A stretch of 64,000 nucleotides of DNA from an uncultured Clostridia bacterium (GCA_934233745.1 CAKQGN010000001.1:322621-386620), one strand, 5' to 3'. Shown: positions 1 to 25,940, numbered from the stretch's first letter. Notes: generated by a model not told the origin, from the letters alone. Numbers and translations: made by a program.

Positions 1-1798
1 GTCTCGATCGCTTTTGCTTTTCGGTAAGTTTTTTGTACGTGAATCTTTCCGCTGTGAATGGTTCGATCGCTGTAGGCGTGCAGTTTTTCAGGTTGTTGTC
101 GTTGAAACCGGTGAATGCGCCTTGTCTTGCACACACGTAACTTCTGATAAACTGTGTTGTCACGACAGGCATATATAGCCGTTTGAGGTACATTTGTCCG
201 GGTTTTATCAAATCCAAATCGCTTATAGGGACAAGCGGAACTTCACGAATGGAGTTGACAGACGGGTCTATTCTCGATTCAAGCGAGGGGATATAGTGTC
301 TGCCGCATTCATTGGCAAATATTTCTTTGGTGGCTCTGTTCTGTGCGCCCAAGAATATCTGTGCGTTGCAGTTGTCGCGGATGATGACCGATCTTTGTTC
401 ACCATAGACTACATCGATTTGTTTGTATGATTGAACAACCAAGTGAAACCAGATGTTGCGTGATCTCGAAGTCGCTATCTTGTTTTCTAAGTCTTTTATC
501 TCGGGGATGTTTCCGAATTCGTCGAGTAAGAAGTGAAGCGGCCTAGTTGCTTTGTTTTCTTCTGCACGCTTGAGCATTTGTCTGTAAACCCAATCGATGA
601 AAAGCCCCGCAATGAGGAAATCGCTCTTCTCATAATCTCTGGTGATGAGAAAGATTGCGAAGGGTTTGTCATATCCGGCGTTGTCGAGATTTATTGTGTT
701 GTTTGTTGTGAGTGCAAAGATGTGTCCTTGGAACCAGTCTTTAATTGCGCCGTCGAAAACACCGCAATAACTTCTCATTGTGTTGGGTGCGTTTGCCAGT
801 GCAGTTGCCATCAGTGCTTTTATTTTATATGGTTTGTTTCGCAACAACCAATGGTTGTATAGTTGTGTTTCATCGGCGAAGATGGGGTCTTTGAGTGCAA
901 GGTAGTACTGTTGTATTGTGCGGAAAGTCATCATGTCACGAGTAAAACCCGATGAGTCGTCGGCGGCGTCTTCCAACATACTGAGAATTATGCCTTTTAA
1001 CAAGTCTTGCGCACCATATTCCCAAGATTTATCTTGCATACATTGATCATTTATTAAGATGTGGACAAGTTGTCCCAAAAGGCTGTCGATGTTTGCTTCT
1101 AAAAAATCTTTTTCGAATTGGATGTAGTTGTCGCAAGTTGTGCCGTTAGGGAAGGCGAGCCCTTTATATTCGACATAGCCCTTGGGTGAATATTGACTTT
1201 CCGGATAGACGCATTTTAGTTCCGGTTTTACCTTGCCTGTGCGCATTTTGCAGCTTTTCCCGAGATTTTTGACTTGCATTTTAGTGTCGTAAATCTCGAG
1301 CAGAGGATTCCATCTGTCCGAGTGGATCAGGTCCTTGAAGTTCAAAACAAACAGTTGGTAGCCTTGATCCTTGAGATGCTGTGCATTCCTGTCAAACAAC
1401 TCGCCTTTCGGGTCTGTCAAAAAAAGGTTAGGTTTGTTCTTTTGAGAGGATATCGCTCTTAATTGCGGTTCCACACACCCCGTTGTCTTGCCACTGCCGG
1501 TTGTCCCGATATAGAGCTCGTGTGAATATGGCAGATAGTAATAGCGCAATCTACAAGCCTTTTGTTGCTCGTCGGTGAGCTTGTCAAATGCTTCGACGTC
1601 ATAAGAATTGCCTGCCGCATCCACATAATCGCTCGCAAAAGGATATCCCTTGACTTCTGTGTTTGGAAGCTCGTCATAAAAGACGGTGGTTACACCATGT
1701 TCTTTGGCGAGCTCGGTGTAATTAACCTTCTTTGCGCTTTCAAGATTTTCGTCTATGTAAGCAAATTTGATTTGGTCAATAATCGAACAGTTTTTCAT
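1..1798 (-). CDS. Type IV secretion coupling protein (VirD4/TraG/TraD-family T4CP), C-terminus cut by window edge
   Basis: Absent from the supplied ORF track because there is no stop codon inside the window. Manual minus-strand translation from ATG at 1798 (AGGAGG at 1805-1810) gives an uninterrupted ~599-codon frame, MKNCSIIDQIKFAY... It contains Walker A YIGTTGSGKTTG, Walker-B-like HFLLDEFGNIP and RDNCNAQIFLGAQN, as in conjugative coupling ATPases. Confidence 0.85.
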   Translation of the reverse strand, partial: MKNCSIIDQIKFAYIDENLESAKKVNYTELAKEHGVTTVFYDELPNTEVKGYPFASDYVDAAGNSYDVEAFDKLTDEQQKACRLRYYYLPYSHELYIGTTGSGKTTGCVEPQLRAISSQKNKPNLFLTDPKGELFDRNAQHLKDQGYQLFVLNFKDLIHSDRWNPLLEIYDTKMQVKNLGKSCKMRTGKVKPELKCVYPESQYSPKGYVEYKGLAFPNGTTCDNYIQFEKDFLEANIDSLLGQLVHILINDQCMQDKSWEYGAQDLLKGIILSMLEDAADDSSGFTRDMMTFRTIQQYYLALKDPIFADETQLYNHWLLRNKPYKIKALMATALANAPNTMRSYCGVFDGAIKDWFQGHIFALTTNNTINLDNAGYDKPFAIFLITRDYEKSDFLIAGLFIDWVYRQMLKRAEENKATRPLHFLLDEFGNIPEIKDLENKIATSRSRNIWFHLVVQSYKQIDVVYGEQRSVIIRDNCNAQIFLGAQNRATKEIFANECGRHYIPSLESRIDPSVNSIREVPLVPISDLDLIKPGQMYLKRLYMPVVTTQFIRSYVCARQGAFTGFNDNNLKNCTPTAIEPFTAERFTYKKLTEKQKRSR

Positions 1799-1809
1799 AG
1801 TTTTCCTCC

Positions 1810-2715
1810 TTATTTGAAACCGAGCTTTTTAGGTGGTTTTTCGGATGAATTTGTGACGTTTTTCCACTCCTTCTTCTCGTAGTTGTTGATATATTCCATT
1901 TTTTCGAAATAGTCCAAAGAATCGGATGTTATGGCTTCTACGAAAGAAAAGTCGATTGCGGTTTTGTCATAAGCATAAACGACATCTTGCTTTATCGAGG
2001 ATATGTATACATAATATGTCTGTGCTTCTTTGGAATATAAGTTCTTTACGGCATCCGGCAGGATGGTATATCCGCTCTTGAGATATTTTTCGGACAAATC
2101 CGCAAGTTCGTAGAAAACCTTGGATTTTTGTTTGTCGCCAGCAAGAATGTAGGTGTAGGCAAGGTAGAACATGGACGGAATGTCACCCCAAAATACGCAC
2201 TGGGTAAAACGATGAATCGCCTCGTTTATATCCGTGTCGCAACCGATGCCCAAAGCAAGCAAAATGCCGACCTGTCTTGTTGTCAAAAGGTTGCCCGATG
2301 CACTTGCTGTGTAAATTTTGGAGAATCTGATGTTTGATTGATATGTTTTATAGTGAGAGTAGTCAAACCAACTTGGGTTTATTTCAGCATTGTGCATATC
2401 CGAAAGGTTTTGAAGTCTTGTCAAAACATCGCCTTTGATATCAAACAAGATATCTTTGTCTGAATAGTTGTCGCCAAATGTTCTGCTACGATACACTGCC
2501 TGCTGGTCTGCCGTCAAACCTAAGGACGACAAATCGTCTAATATGATTCGTTTACTATGGTCAATAAAAGCCTCGTTCAAACGCAACGCACGACCGATAA
2601 AATCAATTATTCTATTTGCGTCTGCTTTTAGTTCGGGCGTTTGGGTATTGGACATCATGGTGGTTGAAAGCACCATGTTGTAGAAAGCTATGTAATTCTT
2701 GAAGATGGTATCCAT
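1810..2715 (-). CDS. Hypothetical protein, possibly Sel1-like repeat, co-transcribed upstream of the T4CP
   Basis: ORF track lists 1810..2727 with a GTG start. ATG at 2715 sits at a better distance from the AAAGGGGGG RBS. The stop overlaps the T4CP RBS. The GILLALGIGCDTDINEAIHRF...MFYLAYTYILAGD segment is weakly Sel1-like. Confidence 0.6.
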   Translation of the reverse strand: MDTIFKNYIAFYNMVLSTTMMSNTQTPELKADANRIIDFIGRALRLNEAFIDHSKRIILDDLSSLGLTADQQAVYRSRTFGDNYSDKDILFDIKGDVLTRLQNLSDMHNAEINPSWFDYSHYKTYQSNIRFSKIYTASASGNLLTTRQVGILLALGIGCDTDINEAIHRFTQCVFWGDIPSMFYLAYTYILAGDKQKSKVFYELADLSEKYLKSGYTILPDAVKNLYSKEAQTYYVYISSIKQDVVYAYDKTAIDFSFVEAITSDSLDYFEKMEYINNYEKKEWKNVTNSSEKPPKKLGFK

Positions 2716-2941
2716 ATAAAGAAACACCCCCCTTTGTCGGTTGTCATGTTTTTAGTATAAGGTGAATTAAAACAATTGTCAAGATATACAGAATGTTCGA
2801 AATCTCGTAAATATTGCGGGAAATCTACAAAAAATGAGGGGTGAAGTGCAGAAAATTTGAGCAAATTGTACAATAACAAAGTGTATTCCATTATGTTGGG
2901 CTTAGCAATCTGTTTTGTAAAACTCCGATAGAGGAGGCAAA

Positions 2942-4262: not shown

Positions 4263-4321
4263 CAAAAACTTTGCAACAATAATAAAAACAACAATTAAAC
4301 ATTATAAAAGGAGAGGAAATT

Positions 4322-5063: not shown

Positions 5064-5099
5064 AAACGGATTGCTCTCTTATAGGGCAATCCGTTTTTA
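5064..5099 (+). terminator. Terminator-like hairpin between the vWA and PP2C genes
   Basis: AAACGGATTGC - 11-nt loop - GCAATCCGTTT followed by TTTAT, located between the stop at 4990 and ATG 5118. Confidence 0.5.
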
Positions 5100-5117
5100 T
5101 TCCTAGGGGGAAAAGAG

Positions 5118-8317: not shown

Positions 8318-8468
8318 CGCGGTTAATCCGACGGAAAAAGAGCATATGGAAAGTACAAGGGTATTTCCCCGATAAAACACAGTTATTCAAATTGGTAAAA
8401 TCACAGATAAGAGAGATTGACTCTGTCGCTATCCGCAAGGATGGGTCAATAATTATTCGAGGTCAAAA

Positions 8469-9377: not shown

Positions 9378-9397
9378 TAAAGTGTGGAATATGAAAG

Positions 9398-11461
9398 ATG
9401 GCATGGGTTTGTAAAAATTGCAACTCGGATAATGACGATTCGCTTACCGCTTGCGAGCTGTGCGGATGTACGGAGAAACTTGTGATAGAAAGTCACAAGT
9501 CTGTTTTGATGCGCAAGCAGGCTCTTGAGTTGGATGTTGTATCGGGCGTGGTTATCGTTCCTTCTGCATATAATATAATCGGCGCACATGCTTTTGAGGG
9601 AAACAATAATATAAAAACGGTTGTTTTGCATGATGAAGTCATAAGCATTTATAAGCAAGCTTTTAAAGACTGTGTCAACCTTGAAAAAGTCGTGTGTGAG
9701 GGCATGCTTGACAGCATAGGCCCGGAGGCGTTTAGAAATTGCAGGGCATTAAAAATAAAACCTGTGGCAAAATCTGTTGATAAGAGTGCGTTTGAAACGG
9801 ATTCATTATTTATGGAAGAAGGGTCGGTTCCATCGCGTACAAGTACTATGACTCCCTCTATCACGACCACTCCGATTCGTTCCGGCGTCACAAGTTATGA
9901 AGATACAACTAGACATACATCGTATCATTTTAACCTTGAAACACTTGTCAAGACACTGGCTGTCGTGATACCGATAATCGCTTTTATTGTCGGGCAAGCA
10001 TTGCAGTACTATTGGCTTTTTATTAAGAATAAAATATATTTTCTTGATATGTTTTTTTCAGCTGTTCCCGCAACGGTATTATATGTTTCGTCTGCGTTTT
10101 GCCTTGTTTCGACCATTCACGTTATAATTAGGTCTTGGAAACTTGCCGATGACGACGAATTGGGCTTGGGAGCGTTGTATTTTAGTTTTTCATCGTTGTT
10201 TTTAGGCGGTATAGCCCCTGTTGCCGGTTATGTCGGGATTATTGTTACTTCGGCGCTCTCATGGCTGTGTGTTACATTCAACGAAGAAAAAGTACCGGCT
10301 TTGTTGCTTTTCCTTTCTTGTGCGGTAGGATTAACATTTATGTGGCTAAGCTATAACAGGGACGTCAATATCTTTTTATTTACAAAATTCATGCGATTGA
10401 TAGACGCAGACCCTTTTCGCGTGATGATTTACTTAAGCGTTGCGACAGGAGTAAGTATCGTTGCGTCCGCAGTGATGGCGGTTGGGATGGCTTATTTCCC
10501 GAATCCGACGGTAGGATACGGTTCACTGGGTGTGTTTTGCAGTTTGATGGCAATTGTGCCGGCGATTGCAATCCCCGGATTGTTAATATACGCTATCGTA
10601 TTTGCCATTATATCAAAAAACGATGACGAACATGTCGCAAAAGTAGGTGCGATAGCCGTTGTTGTCGTATTTTTAATAACGGTTGGCGGATTGGGTGTTT
10701 TCTGTGGAGTGGGAAAGCAGAAAACGTACACACTTTCGGATTACGAGATAGTGAGCATAAGTTCTTTTCAGGACTTTCGACAATATCTGAATGAAGAAGT
10801 CATAGCGATGAATATCTCAAAGGTTTCGGAGTCCGATGTCGCGACTATTATTACCGGAGAAAACTGTAAGACATTGGTGCTTGTGTCCGATCATAATAAG
10901 AAATTTTCACTTACAATCAAGACATCTGCAAAGAAGATTATTCTGAGTGATGTGAATATCAACTACGGCGGACTTGTGTTGGATGCAGAAAAAGTCGAAA
11001 TCAAACTGTACGGACGTAACAGCATAATGGGAGAGACAGGAAAGTCCGGCACGACAGGAAAAGACGGCGAGGACGGAAAAGCGGCTATAATCGGGAAAGA
11101 TATTACTTTTACGGGGAAAGGTCGTATTACGCTCATTGCAGGAAACGGCGGAACGGGCGGTGTCGGCGAAAAGGGCTCTAAAGGATCTTTCACAGGAAGC
11201 GGTGGAAAAGGCGGTACGGGTGGAAAAGGCGGCAACTCAGGTTATACCATAGACTGTGAATATGTCGAGGCAAATTATTTCTCAGGGAAAATAACACTAA
11301 AGAAAGGCTATGCCGGAAGCGGAGGCAACGGAGGTCCTGGAGGGGACGGAGGATTCTTTGGATGGAGCGGTCAAAAGGGAGATAGAGGTGAGAGAGGAGA
11401 GGTTTCCGATTATTGCTCGGGGAAAATCACAATCGATGATAAACGCATTAAAAAAGCGTGA
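9398..11461 (+). CDS. Zn-ribbon / BspA-type LRR / polytopic membrane / Gly-rich collagen-like-tail protein
   Basis: WVCKNCNSDNDDSLTACELCG is a RanBP2-like ribbon. VPSAYNIIGAHAFEGNNNIKTVVLHDEVISIYKQAFKDCVNLEKV is LRR_5-like. About 8 hydrophobic helices follow (aa ~190-450). The C-terminus reads GKSGTTGKDGEDGK...GGTGGVGEKGSKG...GQKGDRGERGE. Confidence 0.7.
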   Translation: MAWVCKNCNSDNDDSLTACELCGCTEKLVIESHKSVLMRKQALELDVVSGVVIVPSAYNIIGAHAFEGNNNIKTVVLHDEVISIYKQAFKDCVNLEKVVCEGMLDSIGPEAFRNCRALKIKPVAKSVDKSAFETDSLFMEEGSVPSRTSTMTPSITTTPIRSGVTSYEDTTRHTSYHFNLETLVKTLAVVIPIIAFIVGQALQYYWLFIKNKIYFLDMFFSAVPATVLYVSSAFCLVSTIHVIIRSWKLADDDELGLGALYFSFSSLFLGGIAPVAGYVGIIVTSALSWLCVTFNEEKVPALLLFLSCAVGLTFMWLSYNRDVNIFLFTKFMRLIDADPFRVMIYLSVATGVSIVASAVMAVGMAYFPNPTVGYGSLGVFCSLMAIVPAIAIPGLLIYAIVFAIISKNDDEHVAKVGAIAVVVVFLITVGGLGVFCGVGKQKTYTLSDYEIVSISSFQDFRQYLNEEVIAMNISKVSESDVATIITGENCKTLVLVSDHNKKFSLTIKTSAKKIILSDVNINYGGLVLDAEKVEIKLYGRNSIMGETGKSGTTGKDGEDGKAAIIGKDITFTGKGRITLIAGNGGTGGVGEKGSKGSFTGSGGKGGTGGKGGNSGYTIDCEYVEANYFSGKITLKKGYAGSGGNGGPGGDGGFFGWSGQKGDRGERGEVSDYCSGKITIDDKRIKKA

Positions 11462-11547: not shown

Positions 11548-14500
11548 ATGAACTACAACCACAAACTAGACGAGAGCGCAAAGTATTTGAAGGTTGTTAC
11601 ACGCGGGGGCTCTACGCCGAAGGGAAAGCGAAGAGTGTATTTCACTTGCCATCCGAAGGATTTTGACAAGTACTTCCAAAAGGTGTGCGACGATATCTTC
11701 AAAACGCAGGATTGCGCGATTTATTATACGGCAGATATGTCCGCGCCGATACCCGAACAATACGTGGAGTCGGACTTGGGACAGATGAATTTGTTTGTTG
11801 TACCGATAACGTATGCTCTTCTTACGGAGAAAAACAGGGCAATGGATTTCGATCTCGCATACGCTATGCGAGACGACGTGTCTATCCCCATTCTTCCGCT
11901 GATGATGGAAAATGGTATAGATTTCTTTTATGAGAAAAAGTTTGGCAATCGTCAATATTTCAGCCCCTATTCACAAGATTTGTCAGCAATCGGTTACGAG
12001 GAAAAGCTGAAAAAATATCTGTCGTCAGTTTTGCTCGACGACGGAACGATAGAGCGTATTCGCAAGGCTTTTGACGCTTATATTTTCCTCAGTTACCGCA
12101 AAAAAGACCGAAACTTTGCAAATGAACTGATGAAACAAATCCACCAAAATCCATTGTATAGAGATATTGCGATTTGGTATGACGAGTTTTTGACACCCGG
12201 TGAAGATTTTGAGGAAAACATCCATAAAGCATTTGACATAAGCAAGCTGTTCGCATTGCTTGTAACGCCGAACCTTGTGAATGAAAAAAACTACGTGCAA
12301 ACCACGGAATACCCGCTTGCAAGAAAAAGCGGAAAGAAAATTTTGCCGGCAGAGTGGGTGGATACCGACAAAAAACTGCTGAAAGAGCAATATCCCGACA
12401 TTCCGCAATGCGTAAACGGAAAAGACCAAGCGGAGCTGGATAAGGGAATTGCCGACGCACTTAAGACAATAGCATTGCAATCCAACGATAACGATCCCGA
12501 GCATTGTTATCTCATAGGTCTTGCATATCTCGACGGAATAGACGTTGAGATAAACGTCCCGTACGCCATTGAGCTTATCACGCGTGCCGCCGAAAAAGAT
12601 TATCCCGATGCTATGGATAAGCTGTTTTTTATGTATTACAATGGCGATCGTGTAAAAGTAGATTACACAGAGGCATTAAAATGGTCAGAAAAACAATATG
12701 GGTTTTATCTGCGTACAAAGGGGGAAGATGCACTTGAGACGCTTGCCACGTTAAACAATATCGGCATGGTTTACAACAGCATCGGGGAATACAACAAAGC
12801 GCAAGAAATAATGCAACAGGCATACGAACGTTTACGTATTGCATATGGCGAAAAACACAAAAAAACCATTAAGATTCTAAGCAATCTTGCGGTTGTATAT
12901 TTTTACCGCGGTGACTATGAGAAATCTGTAGAGCTTGGCGAAAAAGCCTATAGTATAAAATGTGAAGTGTCGGGCGCTTTGGAGCAGGATGCGATTATAA
13001 CATTAACAAATCTTGCTCACACATATAATTGTCTTGGAAATTATAAAAAAGCATTTGAATTAGGACAAAAGGCATATGAACAATTCCGCGAAACGCTAGG
13101 AGAGCAACATTATCATGCTGTAGTTGCGTTAAATAACTTGGCAATGGTATATTATACAACCGGAGATTTTAAAAAAGCGTTGGAATTGGCGTTGAAGGCA
13201 AATCAACAAAACAAAGAAGTGCTGGGAGAGGGGCACCCTGAAACATTTAGGGTATTAGGAAACGCTGCTATAATTTATAACAAACTTGGTGATTTCAATA
13301 ACGCACTGGAATTAAGCAAAAAAGCATATGGTCTTGCAAATGAAGTGTTTGGTGAAAAACATCCTGAAACAATTAAACAGTTGACGAACATCGCAGTCAC
13401 TTATATTAGCCTTGGAGATTATAGAAAAGCATTTGAGTTAAGTCAAAAGGCATATGACCTTGCTTGTGAAACGCTAGGAGAACAACATCCAAATACCATA
13501 CTTGCGTTAAATAACTTGGTAATGGTATATTATACAACCGGAGATTTTAAAAAAGCTCTAGAATTAAGCCAGAAAGCATACGATTTATATTGCGAAGAAT
13601 GTGGCGAAAAGCATCCCGATACTATCACTGCGCTAAACAATCTTGCCCAAACATACATGAAACTCGGAGAGCATCATAAAACACTTGAACTAAGTCAAAA
13701 AGTGTATGACTTAGATTGCGAAATACGCGGTGAGAAACACTTGGAAACCATAGTTGCGTTAAATAATCTTGCCTTAGCATATGGCCAACTTGGTGATTTC
13801 AATAAAGCACTTGAATTAATGTTGAAGGCATACAATCTTTGCTTTGAAGAATGTGGCAAGAAACATCCTAATACTATATTGACGTTACTCAATTCCGCAA
13901 AAGTATATTTGGAGCTTGGCGATTGTGCTAAGGCACTTGAACTAAGTCAAAAAGCGTACGACTTAGCTTGTGAAATACTCGGTGAGAAACACCCAAATAC
14001 TATCATGGCGCTAAATAGTCTTGCCATGGCTTATGTGCAGCTCGGAGATTATAATAAAGCACTTGAACTAAGTCAAAATGCATATGATTTATGTTGCGAA
14101 ATACTCGGTGAGAAAAACCCAGATACTATCATGGTGCTAAATAATCTTGCCCAAGCATATGATCAACACGGAGACTACAGTAAAGCACTCGAATTAATGC
14201 TGAATGTATATTATCTTAGCCGTGAAGCAAGCGGCAAGAGCCATCCGGATACTATACTGTTTTTATACAATCTTACTCAAGAATGTGTAGAGATTGGAAA
14301 TTATAAAAAAGCATTGAAGTTAGCTAAATATGTCTATGCCCTTAGAAAAAAGGCTTTTGGCACAAAACATCCAGATACGATTGATTCAATTGATCTTATT
14401 TCTGACATATATCACAATTTAGGGCGAGATAGGATTGAGTTGAAATTGGTGCGAAAAAAATATCTTTTATTGCGTGATGTTAGCGGCGAAAAGCATCCCG

Positions 14501-15186
14501 AAACAATTACTGCATTAGGTGAGCTTGCTTTATTGTATAGTAACATAGGGAAATTAAAAAAAGCACAAGAATTGAACATGCAGGCATATGCGCTTTCGTG
14601 TGAGGTGCTTGGCGAAAAGCACCCCGATACGCTTACGTCTCTAAATAATTTAGCATATGTATATGATGAAATAGGGAATTATGAAAAATCGGTAGAACTA
14701 AATGAACGATCATATGCTCTTTATCGTGAAGTCTATGGCGAAAAACACCCTGAAACGCTTACATCGTTGAGCAACCTTATTGCCACATATGGTAATGCCG
14801 GGAATTTTGAAAGGGTAATAGAACTAAATGAACAATCGTATGCACTTTGTCGTGAGGTGCTTGGTGAAGAACACCCGGATACACTTAAATCTTTAAGTAG
14901 TCTTGCAATTGCATATGGCTATATAGGAAATGATGAAAAATCATTGGAATTAAATAAACAAGCATACGTTCTTTATTGCAAGGTATTTGGTGAAGAACAT
15001 CCTGAAACGCTTACATCATTGAGTAATCTTGCCATCGCATATAGTAATCTTTGGGATGTTGAAAAAGCAATAGAACTTGGCGAGAGGGCATATGATCTAA
15101 GATGTAAGGTGTTAGGGAAAAAGCATCCTGACACACAAGAATCTCTAGCAAACTTATATATAATATACAGAAGATTCGAAGATTAG
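11548..15186 (+). CDS. Tandem TIR-like domains + Sel1 repeats + ~19 kinesin-light-chain-type 42-aa TPR repeats (1212 aa)
   Basis: RBS AAGGAG. The first TIR-like unit is RRVYFTCHPKDFDKYF...LFVVPITYALL. The second is AYIFLSYRKKDRNFANEL...IAIWYDEFLTPGEDFEENI...LFALLVTPNLV...TTEYPLA. Sel1-like segment: CYLIGLAYLDGIDVEINVPYAIELITRAAEKDYPDAMDKLFFMYYNGD. This is followed by the repeated unit LNNLAxxYxxxGDYxKALELxxKAYDLxxExLGEKHPDT. Confidence 0.8.
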   Translation: MNYNHKLDESAKYLKVVTRGGSTPKGKRRVYFTCHPKDFDKYFQKVCDDIFKTQDCAIYYTADMSAPIPEQYVESDLGQMNLFVVPITYALLTEKNRAMDFDLAYAMRDDVSIPILPLMMENGIDFFYEKKFGNRQYFSPYSQDLSAIGYEEKLKKYLSSVLLDDGTIERIRKAFDAYIFLSYRKKDRNFANELMKQIHQNPLYRDIAIWYDEFLTPGEDFEENIHKAFDISKLFALLVTPNLVNEKNYVQTTEYPLARKSGKKILPAEWVDTDKKLLKEQYPDIPQCVNGKDQAELDKGIADALKTIALQSNDNDPEHCYLIGLAYLDGIDVEINVPYAIELITRAAEKDYPDAMDKLFFMYYNGDRVKVDYTEALKWSEKQYGFYLRTKGEDALETLATLNNIGMVYNSIGEYNKAQEIMQQAYERLRIAYGEKHKKTIKILSNLAVVYFYRGDYEKSVELGEKAYSIKCEVSGALEQDAIITLTNLAHTYNCLGNYKKAFELGQKAYEQFRETLGEQHYHAVVALNNLAMVYYTTGDFKKALELALKANQQNKEVLGEGHPETFRVLGNAAIIYNKLGDFNNALELSKKAYGLANEVFGEKHPETIKQLTNIAVTYISLGDYRKAFELSQKAYDLACETLGEQHPNTILALNNLVMVYYTTGDFKKALELSQKAYDLYCEECGEKHPDTITALNNLAQTYMKLGEHHKTLELSQKVYDLDCEIRGEKHLETIVALNNLALAYGQLGDFNKALELMLKAYNLCFEECGKKHPNTILTLLNSAKVYLELGDCAKALELSQKAYDLACEILGEKHPNTIMALNSLAMAYVQLGDYNKALELSQNAYDLCCEILGEKNPDTIMVLNNLAQAYDQHGDYSKALELMLNVYYLSREASGKSHPDTILFLYNLTQECVEIGNYKKALKLAKYVYALRKKAFGTKHPDTIDSIDLISDIYHNLGRDRIELKLVRKKYLLLRDVSGEKHPETITALGELALLYSNIGKLKKAQELNMQAYALSCEVLGEKHPDTLTSLNNLAYVYDEIGNYEKSVELNERSYALYREVYGEKHPETLTSLSNLIATYGNAGNFERVIELNEQSYALCREVLGEEHPDTLKSLSSLAIAYGYIGNDEKSLELNKQAYVLYCKVFGEEHPETLTSLSNLAIAYSNLWDVEKAIELGERAYDLRCKVLGKKHPDTQESLANLYIIYRRFED
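12700..15180 (+). repeat. Intragenic tandem array of ~126-bp (42-codon) TPR-coding repeats, some pairs nearly identical at DNA level
   Basis: About 19 consecutive units. For example, 13126-13177 versus 13504-13555 has 1 mismatch in ~52 nt at an offset of 378 nt (3 units). Also, ~13940-14025 versus ~14066-14150 are highly similar. Confidence 0.8.
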
Positions 15187-15261: not shown

Positions 15262-15810
15262 ATGGCAAAAGAGGGAAGGTCGCTTGGCGAGGAGTTGAAA
15301 GAGAGCCGTATTATCGTCGTGAGCGGATATATCGACTCGGACAAGGCGGCGACAATTATTTATCAATTGATGGATTACAATGCGAAAAGCGAAAAGGAAG
15401 ATATTCAGTTGTTTATCGGCTCGGGCGGCGGAAGTTACTTGGATATGATGGCGATTATCGATACGATGAACACGATAAAAGCTCCTATATCGGGGACGTG
15501 TATCGGTATGGCGGACGGGTATAGCGCATTGTTGCTTGCGTGCTGCACCAACGGAAAGAGATATGCGCTCAAGCATAGTCAGATTTCTTTCGAACAGCCG
15601 TACGGAGTGTTGCAATCGGGTGCCAATCAAGAGACGGAGATTGCAATCGAGGCAAGAGAAGTCAAACTCGAAAGAGAAATTTTTGAGAATATGCTTGCCC
15701 AAAAGACGAATACGGAATTTGACAAAATACACCGTGATTGCGAGGTCGGGGTGAGCTTAAGCGCACAACAGGCTTTGGAATACGGAATTGTCGATGAGAT
15801 ACTCGAGTGA
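15262..15810 (+). CDS. ClpP-fold protein lacking the catalytic triad (pseudo-protease ClpP paralog)
   Basis: By-eye alignment to E. coli ClpP. GQAASMGAFLL becomes GMADGYSALLL (Ser->Gly). VMIHQP becomes ISFEQP (His->Glu). ERDRFLSA becomes EVGVSLSA (Asp->Gly). The N-terminal axial-loop region is absent. RBS AAGGAGGAAGG. Confidence 0.8.
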   Translation: MAKEGRSLGEELKESRIIVVSGYIDSDKAATIIYQLMDYNAKSEKEDIQLFIGSGGGSYLDMMAIIDTMNTIKAPISGTCIGMADGYSALLLACCTNGKRYALKHSQISFEQPYGVLQSGANQETEIAIEAREVKLEREIFENMLAQKTNTEFDKIHRDCEVGVSLSAQQALEYGIVDEILE

Positions 15811-15826
15811 AAAGGAGGAGAACGAT

Positions 15827-16351
15827 ATGAAAAACAATAACCCTCGTATAGTGTTGTTAAACGGGGCGGTGGATGAAGAATCCGCAATGAAAGTTATTTT
15901 GCAGTTGCTCGAGCTTAACAGACAGGATGAAAACAAAGAGATAAGTCTGTATATCAATTCAAACGGCGGTAGCATAGTTTACGGATTGGCAATCTACGAT
16001 ACGATAAAACTCATCAAAGCGCCTGTTTCGACCGTTTGTTGCGGTATGGCGGCATCTATGGGGGCGTTCTTGCTTTCGTGCGGAGAGAGGGGGAAAAGAT
16101 ATGCTTTGCCGCATAGCAGAATACTCATTCATCAACCCCTCATGCAGATAAGACAAGGAGTGTCTCGCCCTCAAACCGCTATGCAACGTATAGCGGAAGA
16201 TATGGCGAAATCCCGAAAGGAGTTGGAGTCCGTTATGGCAGACAATACGGGTAAATCTCTCGAAACGCTGCATGCGGATTGCGAGAGGGATAAATGGATG
16301 AGTGCAAAAGAAGCCTTAGAATATGGAATTATAGATAAAATATTGGAATAA
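15827..16351 (+). CDS. clpP: ClpP-family serine protease (triad intact, N-terminally short)
   Basis: GMAASMGAFLL (Ser), RILIHQP (His) and CERDKWMSA (Asp). I prefer ATG 15827 with RBS AAAGGAGGAG over the track start 15788, which lies inside the upstream gene. The protein begins at RIVLLNG, so it lacks the canonical N-terminal ~20 aa. Confidence 0.85.
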   Translation: MKNNNPRIVLLNGAVDEESAMKVILQLLELNRQDENKEISLYINSNGGSIVYGLAIYDTIKLIKAPVSTVCCGMAASMGAFLLSCGERGKRYALPHSRILIHQPLMQIRQGVSRPQTAMQRIAEDMAKSRKELESVMADNTGKSLETLHADCERDKWMSAKEALEYGIIDKILE

Positions 16352-16428: not shown

Positions 16429-19053
16429 ATGTTGGGAGCAGTTTCTTGGAATTTGATAGGCGGAGCGTTTACCGGCTTTATAACGTTAATAGTTTTTTAT
16501 GTCGGTATTATGTGGGCGTATATTGCATCGAGAAAAAAGTTTTCGGGTGCAAAGTATGCTGTCGAGCTGTTTTATATTGCGTTGGTGGTTTTGTTTGGCT
16601 TCGGCGTAAAATGCGCTATTTTTGTGGCAAACAGACCCGACACGTTCGATGACGGACTTGCCGCATTCTTCTATGCCATTTATTCGAGTATCGGCGGGCT
16701 CGAGTTCGAAGGCCTGGCGGACGCGGGTGAGGTTGGTACGGCATTGTTACAATGGCTGTATTCGGGAAGTTCGGTGCTTGCCGGACTTGTGTTCTTCAGC
16801 ATCATCCTTACAAAAATCAGCTACGAGATGTACAGCGGAATTTTGCTGTTTTTCTTGCGTATGAGGTTAAAGACAAGCGTGAATACCGACATCTATTTAT
16901 TTACGTCCGTCACGCAGGATTCGTTGCTTTTGGCAAACAGCATCAACGAGAAGAGACTCGGTGATAAGAATAATTACAAAAAAGCACTAAAGGCATATAA
17001 AGAGGACAAAGGAAACGGTAAAGTCGCTCAAAAACCCGAGAAAGCCAGAAATAGTAAGGTGATTTTTGCCGGCGACGATATCGGATCTTTCGATCGTAAA
17101 AATCCGCTGCATAGAGAAATTATGTCCAACGGGTATATGTTTTGGTCTTACTCAAAGAAAACGGGCGGTAATGGACCGTCTATGCTCAAAAGGCTTGGAT
17201 TGTATATCGACAATGTGTTTTTTGAAATAGAATCGCCAAAAGACAAGCAAAAGCAAAACGAGCAAGAGAAAAAAGACAGAGAAAACAAAAAAATCGTTGT
17301 AAAAGCCAAGGCAAAAAATAGCAGGATACATGTTTTTGCAATGCACAACGACGAGGCTTTCAGTGGCGAAGAGACTGTGAATGCAGAAACCGTTTTTGAC
17401 GAAATCGAGACTGTCGTGCGAGAAATCGTGGAGTATAATAAGAAACCTGTTTTCGTCGATTACTACATACTTACGAACACTGATATAAACTACACGTATT
17501 ACGACAATTACAAAAAGAAGTGCATAGAAAGTGCCTTAGAATCCGCAAAAACGAGGACTCACCGTAAAAATAATGTGAAAGATCCTGTTCTTGTAAATGA
17601 CGTAATCGAAGTGCGCAACGAAAGGGGAAGGGTTTGCGAAAGTGAGTTCGCTTTGCATATTATCAACGAGTCCGATATAACGTCAAAACTGTTTGTGGAG
17701 GCTAGAAATAAGGATTGGGATGCGAATTTATTGATTCAGGATACGGGCGAATCGACTTACAAAGTTATGGTTGTCGGCTTTGGTGCGACGGGACAACGGA
17801 CTATGTTGCAATCCTATATCATGTCGACGAAAATAGACAATAAACAACCCGATTATCACATGCCTACGCAATTCAGAGCCGACGTATTCGATAAGGACGC
17901 AGACTCTGTGTGTGGGATTTTTGAATTGCAACATCCTCTTATCGTCTGTGTTAACGATAAGGATGCAAAGGACAATCCTGATAAACTCGAAACACAAATT
18001 GAAAAGAAACGCAGAGAAAGAATCGATATGACATATCATAGCGTAGTCGGCAAGACAATGAATCTTTCTTCGGATTTCAAAAAAGATCGCGCGGCGACAA
18101 TCGAGGACATCGAAAATCAAATGAAATTGCCTGTGGTTGTTATGCACAATGCGTCGTGTTTCGGCTCGGATTATCTCGATTATTTGGATTCGAGAACAGG
18201 CGCAGATTCGCGCTCGCAGGAATATAACCTTATAATAGTTGCTCTCGGGAAAGACGAGGATAATATCAAGATGGCGAATGCTTTGCTTGCGGATATCAAG
18301 CACGAACTCAACAATCTGCGCAATGCAACGAGACCTGCAAAACTGCAAACAATTGCAATCAATTTACTTAACAAGAGAAACCGCGATAGAATCAACTGGA
18401 GCAAAGAGGATAACGAAAGATATGGAAATTTGAAAGTGATTATCTTCGGAAGTAGGGATGATATTTACTCGTATAGACAAATTATAGACGAAACAGAGTG
18501 CATGGAATATCATCACGCATATTATCTTCTCGATACCAACAAAATACCAAACCAAAGCAAACCAATGAAATCATATTATCTTAACAGAGAAACACCGTAC
18601 GTGGGGTGGGGATATTTTGAGTTGTTGTGTGGCTTTTACGATGCTGTAAGATGTGAAGATAAAGAGAATTTAAGATTGGAATGGAAAGACGTTCCGCTTG
18701 TGGAAAGAGAATCGAACAGATCTGCATTGTTATTTAAGAATGTTATGGCGGCGATGAAGTCGTTCTATTGTACGAGTTATTCTTATAGCGAGTTGCGCTT
18801 GTTGGTAGAACTCGAACATGATAGATGGAATAGGTCGTATATCGCCAACGGCTGGACTTATAATCAAAAAATGCCGAAAAAACAAGAAGATGAGTCCGAT
18901 GAAGCTTTTAAAAAACGTCGCAAGAAAGCAAAGAATGACGGTAAAGATAGATGTGAACACGATTGCCTGTTGCCGTATTCTATGTTGGAAGAAAAGTACA
19001 CGGATTATGATATAGCGAATGTCGCCTGTGTGTTTGAAAAAAAGCAACACTAA
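16429..19053 (+). CDS. Membrane protein: channel-like N-terminal TM/pore-loop region + TrkA-N/RCK-like Rossmann domain(s) + C-terminal RyR domain
   Basis: The first ~150 aa contain 3-4 TM helices with a pore-loop-like segment, FFYAIYSSIGGLEFEG, between them. Rossmann signature: YKVMVVGFGATGQRTM...RADVFDKD...LIIVALGKDEDNIKMAN. C-terminal RyR-domain signature: LVELEHDRWNRSYIANGWTY...CEHDCLLPYSMLEEKYTDYDIANV. RBS AAGGAG. Confidence 0.7.
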   Translation: MLGAVSWNLIGGAFTGFITLIVFYVGIMWAYIASRKKFSGAKYAVELFYIALVVLFGFGVKCAIFVANRPDTFDDGLAAFFYAIYSSIGGLEFEGLADAGEVGTALLQWLYSGSSVLAGLVFFSIILTKISYEMYSGILLFFLRMRLKTSVNTDIYLFTSVTQDSLLLANSINEKRLGDKNNYKKALKAYKEDKGNGKVAQKPEKARNSKVIFAGDDIGSFDRKNPLHREIMSNGYMFWSYSKKTGGNGPSMLKRLGLYIDNVFFEIESPKDKQKQNEQEKKDRENKKIVVKAKAKNSRIHVFAMHNDEAFSGEETVNAETVFDEIETVVREIVEYNKKPVFVDYYILTNTDINYTYYDNYKKKCIESALESAKTRTHRKNNVKDPVLVNDVIEVRNERGRVCESEFALHIINESDITSKLFVEARNKDWDANLLIQDTGESTYKVMVVGFGATGQRTMLQSYIMSTKIDNKQPDYHMPTQFRADVFDKDADSVCGIFELQHPLIVCVNDKDAKDNPDKLETQIEKKRRERIDMTYHSVVGKTMNLSSDFKKDRAATIEDIENQMKLPVVVMHNASCFGSDYLDYLDSRTGADSRSQEYNLIIVALGKDEDNIKMANALLADIKHELNNLRNATRPAKLQTIAINLLNKRNRDRINWSKEDNERYGNLKVIIFGSRDDIYSYRQIIDETECMEYHHAYYLLDTNKIPNQSKPMKSYYLNRETPYVGWGYFELLCGFYDAVRCEDKENLRLEWKDVPLVERESNRSALLFKNVMAAMKSFYCTSYSYSELRLLVELEHDRWNRSYIANGWTYNQKMPKKQEDESDEAFKKRRKKAKNDGKDRCEHDCLLPYSMLEEKYTDYDIANVACVFEKKQH

Positions 19054-19068: not shown

Positions 19069-20154
19069 ATGAACGAGAGGCTGTTGATAAGAACGCTCAG
19101 AAAAATTATGAAAACAAAATCACTCAATCTCGAAAGCGTGTCGGCAATCGGAAGTTGCTCGTATGCGGAGGCTTTCGATGTTATGCGATATTTGCTTGAA
19201 AAAGGCATTATCAAAGAAAGCAATGACGGGGAGTTTGCCGTTACGGAAGATAATGAACAAATCGAAGAGTTGCGCAGAGCGAACGGGGACTGGAAAAAAG
19301 AGTTCTCCAACAGCGAACTTAAAAGCATCCTGTATGAAATAGATATGCAAGCGTTTAACATCATCAGAATGTTGGAAGATCTCGATGGGAAGACCATTGA
19401 GGAACTTCGCACCGCATCAAAAGACGCCGCAATCGACGTGGATGCCACGCTTGCATATCTGCAATCGCGAGGGCTGGTTGTGCCGGACGGAGATACGTAT
19501 CGGGGCATAATAGGCGAAGAGAACTACATCAAAATGGTGAATATGTTCAAAAAAGACAAAGCCGAAATGCAACGGAAGATCGATGCGGAAGGCGAACGTC
19601 AGGCAAAGGCTGCTACGGCAAGAAAAGCCGAGGAAGATGAAAAGGAAAGGGAACTTTCCGAAATTATTGCCAATGCGAGAGCGTTGCAAGCGGAAGAGCA
19701 GAAAAAGGAAGAATCTGCCGATGAAACGCCATTGGCGGAAGATACCGAAGTGAGCGCAATTATGTCGCAAGTCGATAGGTTTAGGAAAAAACTCGGTCAA
19801 AAAGAAGAGAATGTTGCGGAGATACCGGTGTGGTTGAATTCAATCCACACCACCGTAATGGTGAAAGCGGATTTGTCGGATACACCGATTGCGGTTTTGC
19901 AAAAAATATATTTGCATTACAACAAAAGAGGCATTGTTAAAAAGTTTGGTGAAAACAACTCGCTTTGCAGTTTTAACGGGAACGTGGCGGCGTTGGATAA
20001 AAAGAAAAGCGTGTTCCAACTTGTGTTTAAGAATGAACTTGTTACGCTCAACTGGGATTTGCCGATAAAAGAGCAGATCAGCGCAAAGCACAGCAGGACG
20101 ATTGGTGAAGATGGCGAACTTGCAGTGTTTGTTTTTGTAGCAATGCAAAATTGA
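19069..20154 (+). CDS. Hypothetical protein with N-terminal winged-helix-like repeats, central charged coiled coil and unknown C-terminal domain
   Basis: 361 aa, starting 15 nt after the preceding stop, RBS GAGAGG. Two wHTH-like segments: YAEAFDVMRYLLEKGIIKESNDGEFAV and AIDVDATLAYLQSRGLVVPDGDTY. I recognised no catalytic motif. Confidence 0.5.
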   Translation: MNERLLIRTLRKIMKTKSLNLESVSAIGSCSYAEAFDVMRYLLEKGIIKESNDGEFAVTEDNEQIEELRRANGDWKKEFSNSELKSILYEIDMQAFNIIRMLEDLDGKTIEELRTASKDAAIDVDATLAYLQSRGLVVPDGDTYRGIIGEENYIKMVNMFKKDKAEMQRKIDAEGERQAKAATARKAEEDEKERELSEIIANARALQAEEQKKEESADETPLAEDTEVSAIMSQVDRFRKKLGQKEENVAEIPVWLNSIHTTVMVKADLSDTPIAVLQKIYLHYNKRGIVKKFGENNSLCSFNGNVAALDKKKSVFQLVFKNELVTLNWDLPIKEQISAKHSRTIGEDGELAVFVFVAMQN

Positions 20155-20306
20155 GAAAAGGCTCATTATAAGTCACAAAACAAAAGTTACAGCTAGTTAT
20201 GTGCAAACAAATTAGAGACTAAAAATGTTGGCGATCATTTTTGAGTTGCGATAATGGCAATATTTTTATACGAAAATAACGTTCACAGTATATCGGGTGT
20301 TATGGC

Positions 20307-20335
20307 TTGCAATATGTACCGAAATATAGTAGAAT
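20307..20335 (+). promoter_or_regulatory. Sigma-70-type promoter (TTGCAA-17 nt-TAGAAT) for the PHP/TIR-NACHT/MBL operon
   Basis: TTGCAA at 20307-20312, 17-nt spacer, TAGAAT at 20330-20335. This leaves a ~70-nt leader before ATG 20413. Confidence 0.45.
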
Positions 20336-20412
20336 ATAACCATTGTTTACGAGAGATGGAAAGTCTCTGCCTGCTCGGGAGAAACGGCACTCGTTTACGG
20401 GGGGGGGGAAGC

Positions 20413-21306
20413 ATGATTGATTTGCATATGCACTCTGTTAATTCAGATGGAACATGCACAACAGAAGAACTTTTACAGCAGTTGGTAGAACTCAATGCTG
20501 AAATAATTTCCTTTACAGACCATGACAGCGTGGGCTGCTATTTTGATTTGAACGATATTTATATTAAACATAATATTCCAATAAAAATTGTACATGGAGT
20601 CGAGTTGAGTTTTTTAGAAGATGGTGTTTTAAGGGATATGTTAGGTTATGGCATCGATGTAAAAATAATAATTAATTGGCTTAATACACGATATTCTAAG
20701 GAGTACAGAATAGCGAAGCAACGAAAGATATTAACAAAATTCAAGGAAATATGTAGAAATAAAGGGATGAAGTTTTCGAACGATCTTGATATTTGCACCG
20801 GAAATAAAAGCGAAGCATTTGTTGTCATGTATAACGAACTAATTAATTATCCCACAAATCGTGAGGCTTTTCCATTTATTACAAACAACACAGCCTTTTA
20901 TTGGCAATACTTTGCAAATAAGTCTAGCGAATACTATGTTGATGAAACGGATGGACTACCTACAATGAAAGATGTTATTGACATAATACATAAATCGGGA
21001 GGTTATGCATTTTTGGCACATCCTTGTGCTTACAAATTAAATAGAACAGAAGTATCTGCGTTTATAGATATTGCCATAAAAAATGGTATAAATGGAATTG
21101 AAGTAAAACACTCATCAAATAAAGATGACGATGTTCCTTTCCTAAGACAAATCGCAGAAATTAACAATCTGTATATTAGTGGGGGCAGTGATTTTCATGG
21201 TTCAACAAAACCAGGATTAAATCTTATCGTTGGGTACAATAATATGTTAGTAACAAAGGATGATATTGGAAACTGGATAAATAGTGTGGAGTCAACCATA
21301 TTTTGA
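20413..21306 (+). CDS. PHP-domain (polymerase/histidinol-phosphatase family) metal-dependent phosphoesterase
   Basis: MIDLHMHSVNSDGTCTTEELL...ISFTDHDSV...HGVELS...AHP...GGSDFHG are the PHP His/Asp motifs. I prefer ATG 20413 (G-rich RBS GGGGGGGGAAGC) to the track start 20254, which overlaps the predicted promoter. Confidence 0.75.
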   Translation: MIDLHMHSVNSDGTCTTEELLQQLVELNAEIISFTDHDSVGCYFDLNDIYIKHNIPIKIVHGVELSFLEDGVLRDMLGYGIDVKIIINWLNTRYSKEYRIAKQRKILTKFKEICRNKGMKFSNDLDICTGNKSEAFVVMYNELINYPTNREAFPFITNNTAFYWQYFANKSSEYYVDETDGLPTMKDVIDIIHKSGGYAFLAHPCAYKLNRTEVSAFIDIAIKNGINGIEVKHSSNKDDDVPFLRQIAEINNLYISGGSDFHGSTKPGLNLIVGYNNMLVTKDDIGNWINSVESTIF

Positions 21307-21314
21307 GGTGAGAT

Positions 21315-25830: not shown

Positions 25831-25940
25831 AAAAGAATTTTTGCGCAACACACGAGAGGTAAAATATTAAAACTTTGACAATGTCCCGCAGATGGTACGT
25901 TCGATTGGATAAGATAAAAAAAATTATACAGGAGATTGTC

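Follow-up and report, generated by a model that had tools for sequence, protein, structure and literature searches.

Can a bacterial membrane protein that ends in a ryanodine receptor (RyR) repeat be opened by the cADPR-type signal of a neighbouring TIR enzyme? This question is raised by a gene in the 64,000-nucleotide stretch of DNA from an uncultured Clostridia bacterium that was analysed here (the window). A first-pass annotation had described its product as a channel-like membrane protein with Rossmann/RCK and RyR domains, encoded next to a TIR enzyme in one operon.

The target gene is a genuine coding sequence. Its ORF opens with ATG, a ribosome-binding site (AAAGGAG) lies 8 nt upstream, and all the motif strings quoted in the first-pass annotation were found in the translation: FFYAIYSSIGGLEFEG at residues 80-95, VVGFGATGQ at 447-455, ADVFDKD at 484-490, EHDRWNRSYIANGWTY at 796-811, LLPYSMLEE at 847-855 and YDIANV at 860-865. 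Full-length homologs with 23-98% identity exclude a chance ORF. The family is unnamed, widespread and large, and is found chiefly in gut Clostridia; its cluster representatives number 805 at E<1e-3 and 193 at E<1e-30. Apart from a sub-threshold RyR match, the target is not recognised by Pfam, NCBIfam or PADLOC models; PADLOC matched none of 52 family members, and a direct search of the PDB with the single protein sequence found nothing. A word-indexed homolog search that started from 70 aligned sequences yielded the same 11 proteins again, probably as an effect of K/E-rich words filling up the list of candidates. Promoter and terminator scans gave counts at the level of shuffled sequence, i.e. 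of chance. The features of the window referred to below are collected in Table 1.

Table 1. Positions of the target gene, its domains and its neighbours in the window
Feature	Position	Strand	Basis and remarks
Conjugative coupling protein (T4CP, truncated at the window edge) and 305-aa partner	1..2727	-	phmmer 4.8e-279 and 4.1e-123 to L001 genes
TIR-TPR protein, 1212 aa	11548..15186	+	TIR_2 6.9e-10, many TPR matches; PADLOC ThsB-like; candidate signal producer, context only
ClpP paralog 1, ClpR-like	15262..15810	+	Pfam CLP_protease 4.9e-42; triad Ser, His, Asp replaced by G/E/G
ClpP paralog 2, active-type	15827..16351	+	Pfam 8.4e-62; full Ser-His-Asp triad
Target gene, 874 aa (TM pore-like domain, alpha/beta domain 1, Rossmann domain 2, helical linker, RyR domain)	16429..19053	+	ORF and translation, family alignments A1-A3, full-length AF2 model (pLDDT 66)
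Membrane domain, aa 1-150	16429..16878	+	AF2 on 65 sequences: pLDDT 93.2, pTM 0.82
Signature Y85-S-S-I-G-G-L-E-F-E-G95, candidate selectivity-filter or ligand loop	16681..16713	+	End of pore-helix-like segment; 70 diverse members
Alpha/beta domain 1, aa ~153-430	16885..17718	+	Secondary structure of AF2 model; invariant or near-invariant alignment columns
Rossmann-like domain 2, aa ~443-690	17755..18498	+	Conserved motifs, beta-alpha-beta pattern, weak Foldseek matches
Single RyR/R12-type domain, aa ~786-866, with H797, W800, H844, D861	18784..19026	+	Family profile against PDB; Pfam sub-threshold
361-aa protein	19069..20154	+	Starts 16 nt after target; 48% identity to L002 gene
PHP gene	20254-21306	+	NCBIfam; flanks TIR-NACHT gene
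TIR-NACHT/NPHP3_N-TPR STAND protein, 926 aa	21315..24095	+	TIR_2 1e-18, NPHP3_N 2.1e-25; PADLOC TIR models; context only
MBL gene	24092-24847		NCBIfam; flanks TIR-NACHT gene

The C-terminal RyR domain was confirmed. The Pfam model (PF02026) scores the target at 19.7 bits (E 0.001), below its gathering cut-off of 27.4, and reaches E<0.01 in 22 of 52 family members (best 1.1e-5). Searched against the PDB, the profile of family alignment A2 matches RyR structures: 6uhi, a chimera, at 8.5e-14, 4n05 at 9.4e-7, 3nrt at 1.5e-6 and the R12 repeat of RyR3 at about 7e-4. Phage RyR-domain proteins bind 2'cADPR, 3'cADPR and cADPR at nM affinity, or hydrolyse them; RyDEP is a 2'/3'cADPR glycosidase and RyR Tad a gcADPR sponge. 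Their ligand residues (H75/W78/H100/D117 in RyDEP, H129/W132/H154/D171 in RyR Tad) recur in the target with the same spacing, H-x2-W and H-x16-D, and are near-invariant among 70 family members: H797 is kept in 66, W800 in 70, H844 in 69 and D861 in 70. A K/E-rich insertion of 22 residues lies between the two half-sites of the target domain. Because the His/Asp dyad responsible for catalysis in RyDEP is part of the tetrad, the domain may act as an enzyme instead of a sensor.

The same domain is thus present in RyDEP, RyR Tad, the 'putative ryanodine receptor' of B. thetaiotaomicron (3NRT/4N05) and the target. Whereas the former three are small, soluble, dimeric and encoded by phages or as stand-alone genes, in the target the domain forms the C-terminus of a polytopic membrane protein of 874 aa, whose gene belongs to bacteria or a conjugative element. 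With eukaryotic ryanodine receptors the target has in common a homologous nucleotide- or drug-binding repeat (R12), joined to a P-loop-type cation channel, which in the target is a prediction. Those receptors, with 5,000 aa, six TM helices and tandem repeats at the cytosolic periphery, do not share the rest of the target, and the data do not imply that channel and RyR domain were combined in a common ancestor.

Whether the N-terminus can form a pore was judged from its predicted structure. The model of residues 1-152 contains helices at 7-37, 42-68 and 73-91, the last of them pore-helix-like, then a loop at 92-104 and an inner-helix-like helix at 105-150 that is predicted to extend into the cytoplasm. 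This pLDDT-93 model has the topology of an outer TM helix, a re-entrant pore helix, a loop and an inner TM helix. Hydropathy gives three hydrophobic helices, of which the second and third are separated by a segment that is half-hydrophobic. Four K/R residues lie in the loop 34-42, and segment 69-104 holds seven D/E against one R; these charges fit a topology with the N-terminus outside and the C-terminus inside, in which the soluble domains would be cytoplasmic and both ends of segment 69-104 would face outward. Conservation within the domain is highest in the loop signature and at polar positions of the TM helices. Among 70 diverse members, Y85 is found in 57, G89 in 63, G90 in 56, L91 in 56, F93 in 68, E94 in 59 (D in five more) and G95 in 63.

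When the membrane domain model was compared with the PDB by Foldseek, P-loop cation channels accounted for 40 of the 50 top matches, among them GluA2, Shaker, KvAP, KcsA, K2P, KCNQ1, TRPV6 and SthK, although the best E was only 0.4 and none of the matches is significant (KcsA: prob 0.84, TMt 0.65, rmsd 4.7 A). The full-length model finds 8hk6_A, an entry labelled potassium channel (prob 0.91); full-length searches of the PDB and BFVD gave weak matches only (best E 0.004, PDB, full chain), because the pLDDT of that model is only 66. No Ion_trans match was obtained in 52 family members, no channel or RCK structure was found in the PDB with the family profile, and the TxGYG filter is absent from the target, its loop reading IGGLEFEG. 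The TM helices and pore loop proposed earlier are therefore upheld by the predicted fold, and not by match significance, sequence profile or a K+ filter, so that the support for a channel lies at fold level only. The acidic loop residue E94 suggests conduction of cations rather than K+-selective conduction.

Two alpha/beta domains follow. The first has its own conserved motifs (FDRKNPLHREIM, E315/N318 and LH410xxNE414) and matches no known family, including Pfam in 52 members. The second carries the motifs beta1-GFGATGQ (about 450-455), ADVFD (484-488) and ALGKDEDNIKMAN (605-617). Its GxGxxG motif and the acidic residue after beta2 (A-D-V-F-D488) are conserved: G450 is invariant among 70 members, and F451, G452 and D488 are kept in at least 90% of them. 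The strand and helix pattern in the AF2 model is beta-alpha-beta, and Foldseek gives weak matches to NAD(P) Rossmann enzymes. TrkA_N (RCK/KTN) matched 0 of 52 members and the PDB profile search found nothing of the kind. Hence the Rossmann part of the earlier Rossmann/RCK assignment stands, at motif level only, and membership of the RCK family does not. By hhalign, probabilities were below 4% against KcsA, MthK, NaK, Kch and KtrA, and 3.4% against the RCK domains of MthK, Kch and KtrA, which is weak negative evidence because the comparators were thin.

MthK, Kch and GsuK (Ion_trans_2 plus TrkA_N) offer the nearest comparison in general plan. Like them, the target is predicted to fold into outer helix, pore helix, loop and inner helix, with the inner helix running on to cytoplasmic alpha/beta domains, one of which has GxGxxG and an acidic residue after beta2. 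Unlike them, it lacks profile-level similarity to Ion_trans_2 or TrkA_N, has GGLxFEG in place of TxGYG and an additional N-terminal TM helix, carries as its first cytoplasmic domain one devoid of GxGxxG, and ends in a RyR domain.

Next to be considered are the TIR genes. The target, both TIR genes and the genes between them lie on the same strand with short gaps, but target and TIR genes are not adjacent: two ClpP-family genes separate the TIR-TPR gene from the target, and the genes for the 361-aa protein and PHP lie between the target and the TIR-NACHT-TPR gene. The latter is packed with PHP and MBL into what resembles a separate unit. Out of about 17 distinct loci, a TIR gene occurs near the target gene only in the window, L002/L003 and L007; none was found in L001, L008, L010, L011, L012, L013, L018, L021 and L023, the loci with enough flanking sequence. 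The first-pass annotation had itself named a lack of association between RyR-domain homologs and TIR genes as grounds for refutation, and as a general rule the association is abandoned here. The three TIR-positive loci are not independent, because they are syntenic and closely related. Within this close clade, the TIR type varies (TIR-TPR and TIR-NACHT-TPR in the window, TIR-NACHT-LRR in L002, an 816-aa TIR in L007) and yet a TIR gene stays within two genes of the target each time, so TIR coupling of the target is possible there.

Precedent for such coupling exists. In Thoeris type X, a ThsB TIR acts with an ion-channel effector, ThsK, and the system has been validated as defence; types II, V and VII also have TM effectors. 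The logic of a TIR signal acting on a membrane or channel effector is that proposed for the target. A strict model of this kind would have the neighbouring TIR-TPR and/or TIR-NACHT protein sense infection and make a cADPR-type signal, which would be received by the RyR or Rossmann domain and open the pore, causing abortive infection. It draws on the conserved ligand tetrad, on the ligands that RyR domains are known to bind, on the glutamate of the NADase motif, which by inspection is retained in the window TIRs, and on the window being a dense defence island. Nevertheless, Thoeris operons are compact, with small ThsB TIRs directly adjacent, whereas the window TIRs are large STAND/TPR proteins, of a kind that usually has its own effector logic, located two genes away and missing from most family loci. 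The target also shows no homology to the putative ThsK of L026, a 208-aa protein identified by its position between two ThsB genes (hhalign prob 0.7%), even though that protein has a P-loop-like 'TLTYGGF' segment as well. The main text of the Thoeris type X study and those of its supplementary tables that were consulted make no mention of a RyR domain. Membership of the target in Thoeris type X was rejected, there being no such homology and no adjacent ThsB, and we consider the strict Thoeris-like model unlikely.

What constantly accompanies the target gene, in place of the TIR genes close by, is either a ClpR-like and ClpP pair or a distant paralog. ClpR and ClpP genes lie directly upstream of the target in the window, L001, L007/L022, L008, L011 and L012, and their orthology holds while target identity falls to 33%. 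When the window genes were aligned with E. coli ClpP and with their orthologs in five other loci, the catalytic triad was absent from paralog 1 and present in paralog 2 in all six loci. Paralog 2 of the window probably starts at ATG 15827, behind a AAAGGAGG site; the ORF list begins it at TTG 15788. About half of the loci contain no Clp genes, and the gene directly upstream encodes a distant TM-Rossmann-RyR protein, paralogous to the target by hhalign (prob 97.6), in L002, L004, L005, L006, L009/L017, L010, L018, L020/L021 and L023. On the downstream side, the 361-aa protein is a conserved partner of the target in the close clade; phmmer found relatives in L002, L003, L007, L009 and L012 (weaker in L009 and L012), and Pfam and PADLOC gave no match.

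This arrangement raises the question whether a protease is the real effector. The target might be a membrane regulator, anchor or substrate of ClpR/ClpP, with a nucleotide at its RyR or Rossmann domain controlling proteolysis by ClpP or by a fused peptidase: some relatives carry a C-terminal M20/M28 peptidase, and an M29 aminopeptidase gene follows the target gene in L018 and L005. These traits, together with the persistence of the pair upstream, would suit such a role. On the other hand, a loop for docking to ClpP was not recognised in the target, about half of the loci make do with the paralog, and the conserved membrane loop would be left unexplained; we regard this reading as improbable. 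The more specific idea that the target is a ClpP-docking unfoldase was rejected for absence of an AAA+ domain. Tandem ClpP paralogs of which one lacks the triad are also known as cyanobacterial and plastid ClpR and actinobacterial ClpP1P2, but the window pair differs from these in being the cargo of a mobile element, tied to a membrane RyR protein and without an adjacent AAA+ partner.

The mobile element was recognised by its coupling protein. The L001 homolog of this gene carries T4SS-DNA_transf, TrwB and TraG-D_C, and in L001, L011 and L012 the coupling-protein gene and its 305-aa partner directly and divergently adjoin ClpR-ClpP-target. In the window, a defence-gene block of 12.5 kb is inserted between the two. 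No module pairing ClpR-ClpP or the paralog with the target next to a conjugative coupling-protein gene was found in the libraries and literature searched. Mobile elements carry anti-defence genes close to their transfer genes. Given this location and the RyDEP dyad, the target might be a membrane-anchored enzyme or sponge, not a channel, acting through its RyR domain to hydrolyse or sequester immune signals based on ADPR and so shielding the element or silencing host TIR signalling. Known RyR anti-defence proteins are, however, small and soluble, and a sponge would need far less than the target has, with its 874 aa, several membrane passes, two additional alpha/beta domains and strongly conserved membrane loop. 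No relatives of the family were found in plasmids and phages (tblastn) or in viral contigs (scan). Many family loci are chromosomal, outside the island and amid housekeeping genes (ruvCAB, DeoR, LysR), and an anti-defence function of this type seems to us hardly probable.

These housekeeping neighbourhoods also count against assuming an immune role for the family. Together with the layout of a pore and cytoplasmic Rossmann domains, they would agree with an ordinary RCK-regulated K+ or cation channel whose location in a defence island is accidental. An ordinary channel would not account for the missing K+ filter and the missing TrkA_N and Ion_trans_2 matches, nor for the steady pairing with a dead and active ClpP pair or paralog, the location in a conjugative element and the conserved RyR tetrad, and is very improbable.

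We tentatively favour, at nearly even chances, a nucleotide-gated oligomeric cation channel that is the cargo of a conjugative element and forms a module with ClpR/ClpP or the paralog. In such a channel, the membrane domain with its outer helix, re-entrant helix, Y-S-x-I-G-G-L-x-F-E-G loop and long inner helix would be the pore unit. RyR repeats would pair between subunits, as in RyDEP, RyR Tad and the B. thetaiotaomicron protein, and an adenine or ADP-ribose-type ligand would bind at H797/W800/H844/D861. Its binding would move the cytoplasmic assembly hanging on the inner helix and so open or close the pore. The protein would work together with its dedicated dead ClpR-like and active ClpP pair, or with the distant TM-Rossmann-RyR paralog, as cargo beside the coupling-protein gene, at a site which in the window has also gathered TIR-TPR, TIR-NACHT and other defence genes. 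Given this pairing with ClpR/ClpP or the paralog, and a site that accumulates varied defence genes, a general nucleotide (ATP/ADP, NAD+, ADPR) or a signal produced in trans is a likelier ligand than what a single dedicated TIR nearby would make. In the close clade of the target, a TIR-made cADPR isomer is plausible as ligand. The full proposal, that TIR-made cADPR isomers gate a mobile-element channel through its R12-type domain, restrained or aided by its own ClpR/ClpP, is in our view rather improbable.

If true, this last proposal would make the target a prokaryotic counterpart of the disputed link from cADPR to ryanodine receptors and a new class of Thoeris-like effector. According to two 2026 preprints, the cADPR isomers that serve as signals in TIR immunity are bound or cleaved by RyR/R12 domains of phages; both preprints raise, as a matter beyond their own reach, the question whether cADPR could act through this pocket on the ryanodine receptors of animals. 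The family described here, large and without an entry in Pfam, NCBIfam or PADLOC, joins that pocket, with all four ligand residues, to a membrane domain whose predicted fold resembles P-loop channels, and could serve as a compact bacterial model for direct tests of how a ligand of the RyR domain gates a channel. Should the TIR link fail, the target would still be a novel kind of membrane module, regulated by nucleotides, in gut Clostridia.

The motifs that the first-pass annotation had quoted from the gene under study, the target, were all found in its translation where they had been placed. By hydropathy the protein has three hydrophobic helices, and a segment lying between helices two and three is half-hydrophobic. 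Searches of NCBIfam, PADLOC and, directly by sequence, the PDB gave no match to this protein. A word-indexed search retrieved 11 homologs. An exhaustive profile search brought up 805 cluster representatives at E<1e-3, of which 193 passed E<1e-30; most have 760-1000 aa and match end to end, so that homologs span the full length of the target. No family member bears a name in any source searched, and PADLOC matched none of 52 diverse members. Relatives from named genome records are MAGs, chiefly of Clostridia and Christensenellaceae from gut or rumen. Both the gene and its family are established.

Coordinates of the target, its partners and neighbouring features in the window and in related loci (L)
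Feature	Sequence	Position	Strand	Remarks
T4SS coupling protein (T4CP) and 305-aa partner	window	1-2727	-	opens the window
T4CP and ~300-aa partner	L001; L011; L012	6006-8725; 3960-6688; 63-2819		
VWA to LRR genes	window	4322-11461		
TIR-TPR gene	window	11548-15186		
Tandem ClpP paralogs	window	15262-16351		upstream of target; first without triad, second with triad
Target ORF	window	16429-19053	+	874 aa; ATG start, AAAGGAG site ahead of it
PHP, TIR-NACHT-TPR, MBL	window	20254-24847		
299-aa ORF	window	25875-26774		TTG start
AAA+ to cREC_REC genes	window	31956-36345		
Type I RM operon (hsdM, hsdS, hsdR)	window	38041-46081		AbiJ_NTD4 gene between hsdM and hsdS
Fic	window	47779-49050		
Second AbiJ-like gene	window	51685-52587		
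UvrD-HRDC	window	52939-56202		
Eco57I-like fused RM gene	window	58383-62483	-	
~700-aa paralog	L002; L004; L006; L007; L010; others	7621-9939; 509-2638; 1238-3370; 3052-5535; 5668-7992		
M29 aminopeptidase gene	L018; L005	11020-12267; 4322-4801		after target
Putative Thoeris type X locus, Vibrio	L026	3740-5468		208-aa membrane protein between two ThsB TIR genes

For the C-terminal RyR domain, Pfam RyR scores 19.7 bits on the window protein, under the cut-off of 27.4, and is the sole Pfam family that recurs among the diverse members (22 of 52, best E 1.1e-5). Against solved structures, a profile of 70 members matches an RyR1 chimera (8.5e-14), the Bacteroides thetaiotaomicron "putative ryanodine receptor" 4N05/3NRT (~1e-6) and RyR3 R12 (~7e-4). 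Phage RyR-domain proteins act on TIR signals (PMC13232231; 10.64898/2026.06.04.730250, both 2026 preprints), and some RyR-domain homologs are nanomolar sponges (PMC13232231). The phage protein RyR Tad binds 3'cADPR with an affinity of 43 nM, and also 2'cADPR and cADPR, its ligand residues being H129/W132, K147/H154 and K170/D171 (10.64898/2026.06.04.730250). The target has the half-sites H797-x2-W800 and H844-x16-D861, conserved in 66, 70, 69 and 70 of the 70 members, respectively. Spacings within the half-sites are identical to those of the phage proteins, whereas a 22-residue K/E-rich insertion separates the half-sites in the target. The profile matches and the conserved ligand residues confirm the RyR domain, and we infer on good grounds that its ligand would be of ADPR or adenine type. 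Because the sponges share these residues with an enzyme (RyDEP, a 2'/3'cADPR glycosidase), the sequence does not decide between sensing and cleavage.

The first-pass annotation also read the N-terminus as channel-like. The full-length model is middling (pLDDT 66, loop <50), whereas residues 1-152, modelled with 65 sequences, reach pLDDT 93.2 and pTM 0.82, with three helices (7-37, 42-68, 73-91), then a loop (92-104) and a long helix (105-150). Foldseek of this model against the PDB gave no significant match (best E 0.4); tetrameric P-loop cation channels make up 40 of the 50 best, non-significant matches, among them AMPA-receptor TMDs, Shaker/Kv, KvAP, KcsA (prob 0.84, TMt 0.65, rmsd 4.7 A, 99 columns), K2P, KCNQ1, TRPV6 and SthK. 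Four K/R in loop 34-42 and RMRLK after the last helix, with seven D/E in segment 69-104, fit a K-channel-like orientation in which the former two would face inside and the latter outside. Conservation in the domain peaks at Y85-S-x-I-G-G-L-x-F-E-G95, where F93 is retained by 68 of 70 members and G89 and G95 by 63 each; the conserved acid there, E94, would be in keeping with a cation site. This loop is ruled out as a K+ filter. The channel claim is therefore supported as a predicted fold, a pore loop being likely, and fails as sequence-level membership, for which Pfam in 52 members (no Ion_trans), the family profile against the PDB and hhalign were all negative.

Likewise, the proposed Rossmann/RCK domain stood in its first half. 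Domain 2 (residues ~443-690) is Rossmann-like, with three conserved motifs, beta1-GFGATGQ, ADVFD (following beta2) and ALGxDExN; weak fold matches of the full-length model are to NAD(P)-Rossmann enzymes and a "potassium channel" (8hk6_A, prob 0.91). Neither hhalign nor Pfam in the 52 members, where TrkA_N and other NAD-binding models were absent, supports RCK/TrkA_N membership. Domain 1 (~153-430) is without GxGxxG and matches nothing known; its invariant residues include FDRKNPLHREIM, E315, N318 (invariant in 70), H410 and E414.

Seed proteins mapped onto 25 related loci, which represent about 17 distinct ones, revealed two kinds of upstream partner. A tandem ClpP pair directly precedes the target in the window, L001, L008, L011, L012 and L007/L022, and is orthologous across loci even where target identity falls to 33%. 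Ser, His and Asp are all lost from the first, ClpR-like gene in six of six loci (G/E/G in the window), and the triad is kept in the second, again in six of six. In half of the loci, a ~700-aa gene takes the place directly upstream: L002, L004, L005, L006, L009/L017, L010, L018, L020/L021 and L023; L007/L022 possess both. Its product is a distant paralog of the target (hhalign prob 97.6) with TM helices, two Rossmann-like segments and an RyR-like EHQRWN...RRHG tail, which suggests hetero-oligomers. Some family members (P0058, P0064) carry an M20/M28 metallopeptidase C-terminal to the RyR domain, and in two loci the target is followed by an M29 aminopeptidase gene. The M20/M28 fusions and the Clp pair hint at a recurring peptidase connection.

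The first-pass annotation put the target and a TIR enzyme side by side in a single operon. The two ClpP-family genes actually intervene before the upstream TIR-TPR gene, and a 361-aa gene and a PHP gene lie before the downstream TIR-NACHT-TPR gene. Among related loci, TIR domains occur only in the window, L002/L003 and L007, syntenic relatives 70-76% identical. None was found in the nearest genes of L008, L012, L013, L018, L021 and L023 (Pfam scans) or L001 (precomputed Pfam), where ruvCAB, DeoR/LysR regulators, M29 peptidase, ParA, DUF885 and others occur instead. Over the family as a whole there is thus no statistical association with TIR genes, an outcome that the first-pass annotation had itself named as refuting its hypothesis. 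In each locus of the close clade, some TIR protein is encoded within two genes of the target, its kind differing per locus, and a local link may exist there. The proposed logic, in which a TIR signal activates a membrane effector, has a validated precedent in Thoeris type X, a phage defence in which a small ThsB TIR works with an ion-channel effector through an unknown signal (10.64898/2025.12.03.692087). We retrieved a putative type X locus with the published TIR sequence; its membrane protein has a K-channel-like "TLTYGGF" segment and no homology to the target family, which rules out the target as a type X member. Here again, a T4SS coupling-protein gene is found a few kb away. We consider the strict TIR-RyR-pore model unlikely.

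Ahead of its Pfam TIR_2 (179-272), the TIR-TPR protein contains another TIR-like region (residues 1-160, "RVYFTCHPKD"), a layout common to the 816-aa TIR protein of L007. The PHP (RNase RNM/pAp-phosphatase-like), TIR-NACHT-TPR and MBL (RNase Z/cyclic-nucleotide-phosphodiesterase-like) genes follow one another closely (9-nt gap, 4-nt overlap) and look like a separate three-gene TIR-STAND system with possible signal-processing enzymes.

In L001, L011 and L012, the T4CP gene and its partner directly and divergently adjoin ClpR-ClpP-target. In the window, 12.5 kb with YbjN-like, VWA, 586-aa protein, Ser/Thr kinase, TerD, LRR and TIR-TPR genes separate them. The run from VWA through the 586-aa protein, kinase and TerD to the BspA-type LRR gene is syntenic with L002 and partly L007, and recalls a TerY-P-like triad accompanied by TerD. 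Elsewhere, too, the window is dense in defence genes: WYL, Cas4-like, AAA+/metallophosphatase/cREC, type I RM with AbiJ, Fic, UvrD and Eco57I-like RM. An AAA+ ATPase, a 292-aa protein, a calcineurin-like phosphoesterase and a cREC_REC (cyclic-phosphate-processing receiver) protein stand in a row that could be another nucleotide-signal system. The 299-aa ORF, whose sole match is to the NTPase portion of DNA polymerase III alpha, could be a fragment of a gene or a protein made of that domain alone. No target relatives turned up in plasmid, phage and viral-contig collections. The window probably belongs to a conjugative element, and on the simplest reading ClpR-ClpP-target represents cargo, lodged at a hotspot that adjoins the T4CP gene and to which TIR genes also came.

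The original observation is thus confirmed and its interpretation partly supported. The reading that we tentatively favour makes the target a nucleotide-gated P-loop-type cation channel whose RyR/R12 pocket would be the sensor. The analysis shows the gene with its family, the RyR domain with its ligand residues, the predicted TM fold, the partnership with the Clp pair or the paralog, and the T4CP synteny. Ligand identity, an oligomeric pore with its conduction and gating direction, what the protease does and any part played in immunity are inferences. Such a channel would work with its dedicated ClpR/ClpP pair, and a conjugative element would be the carrier of both.
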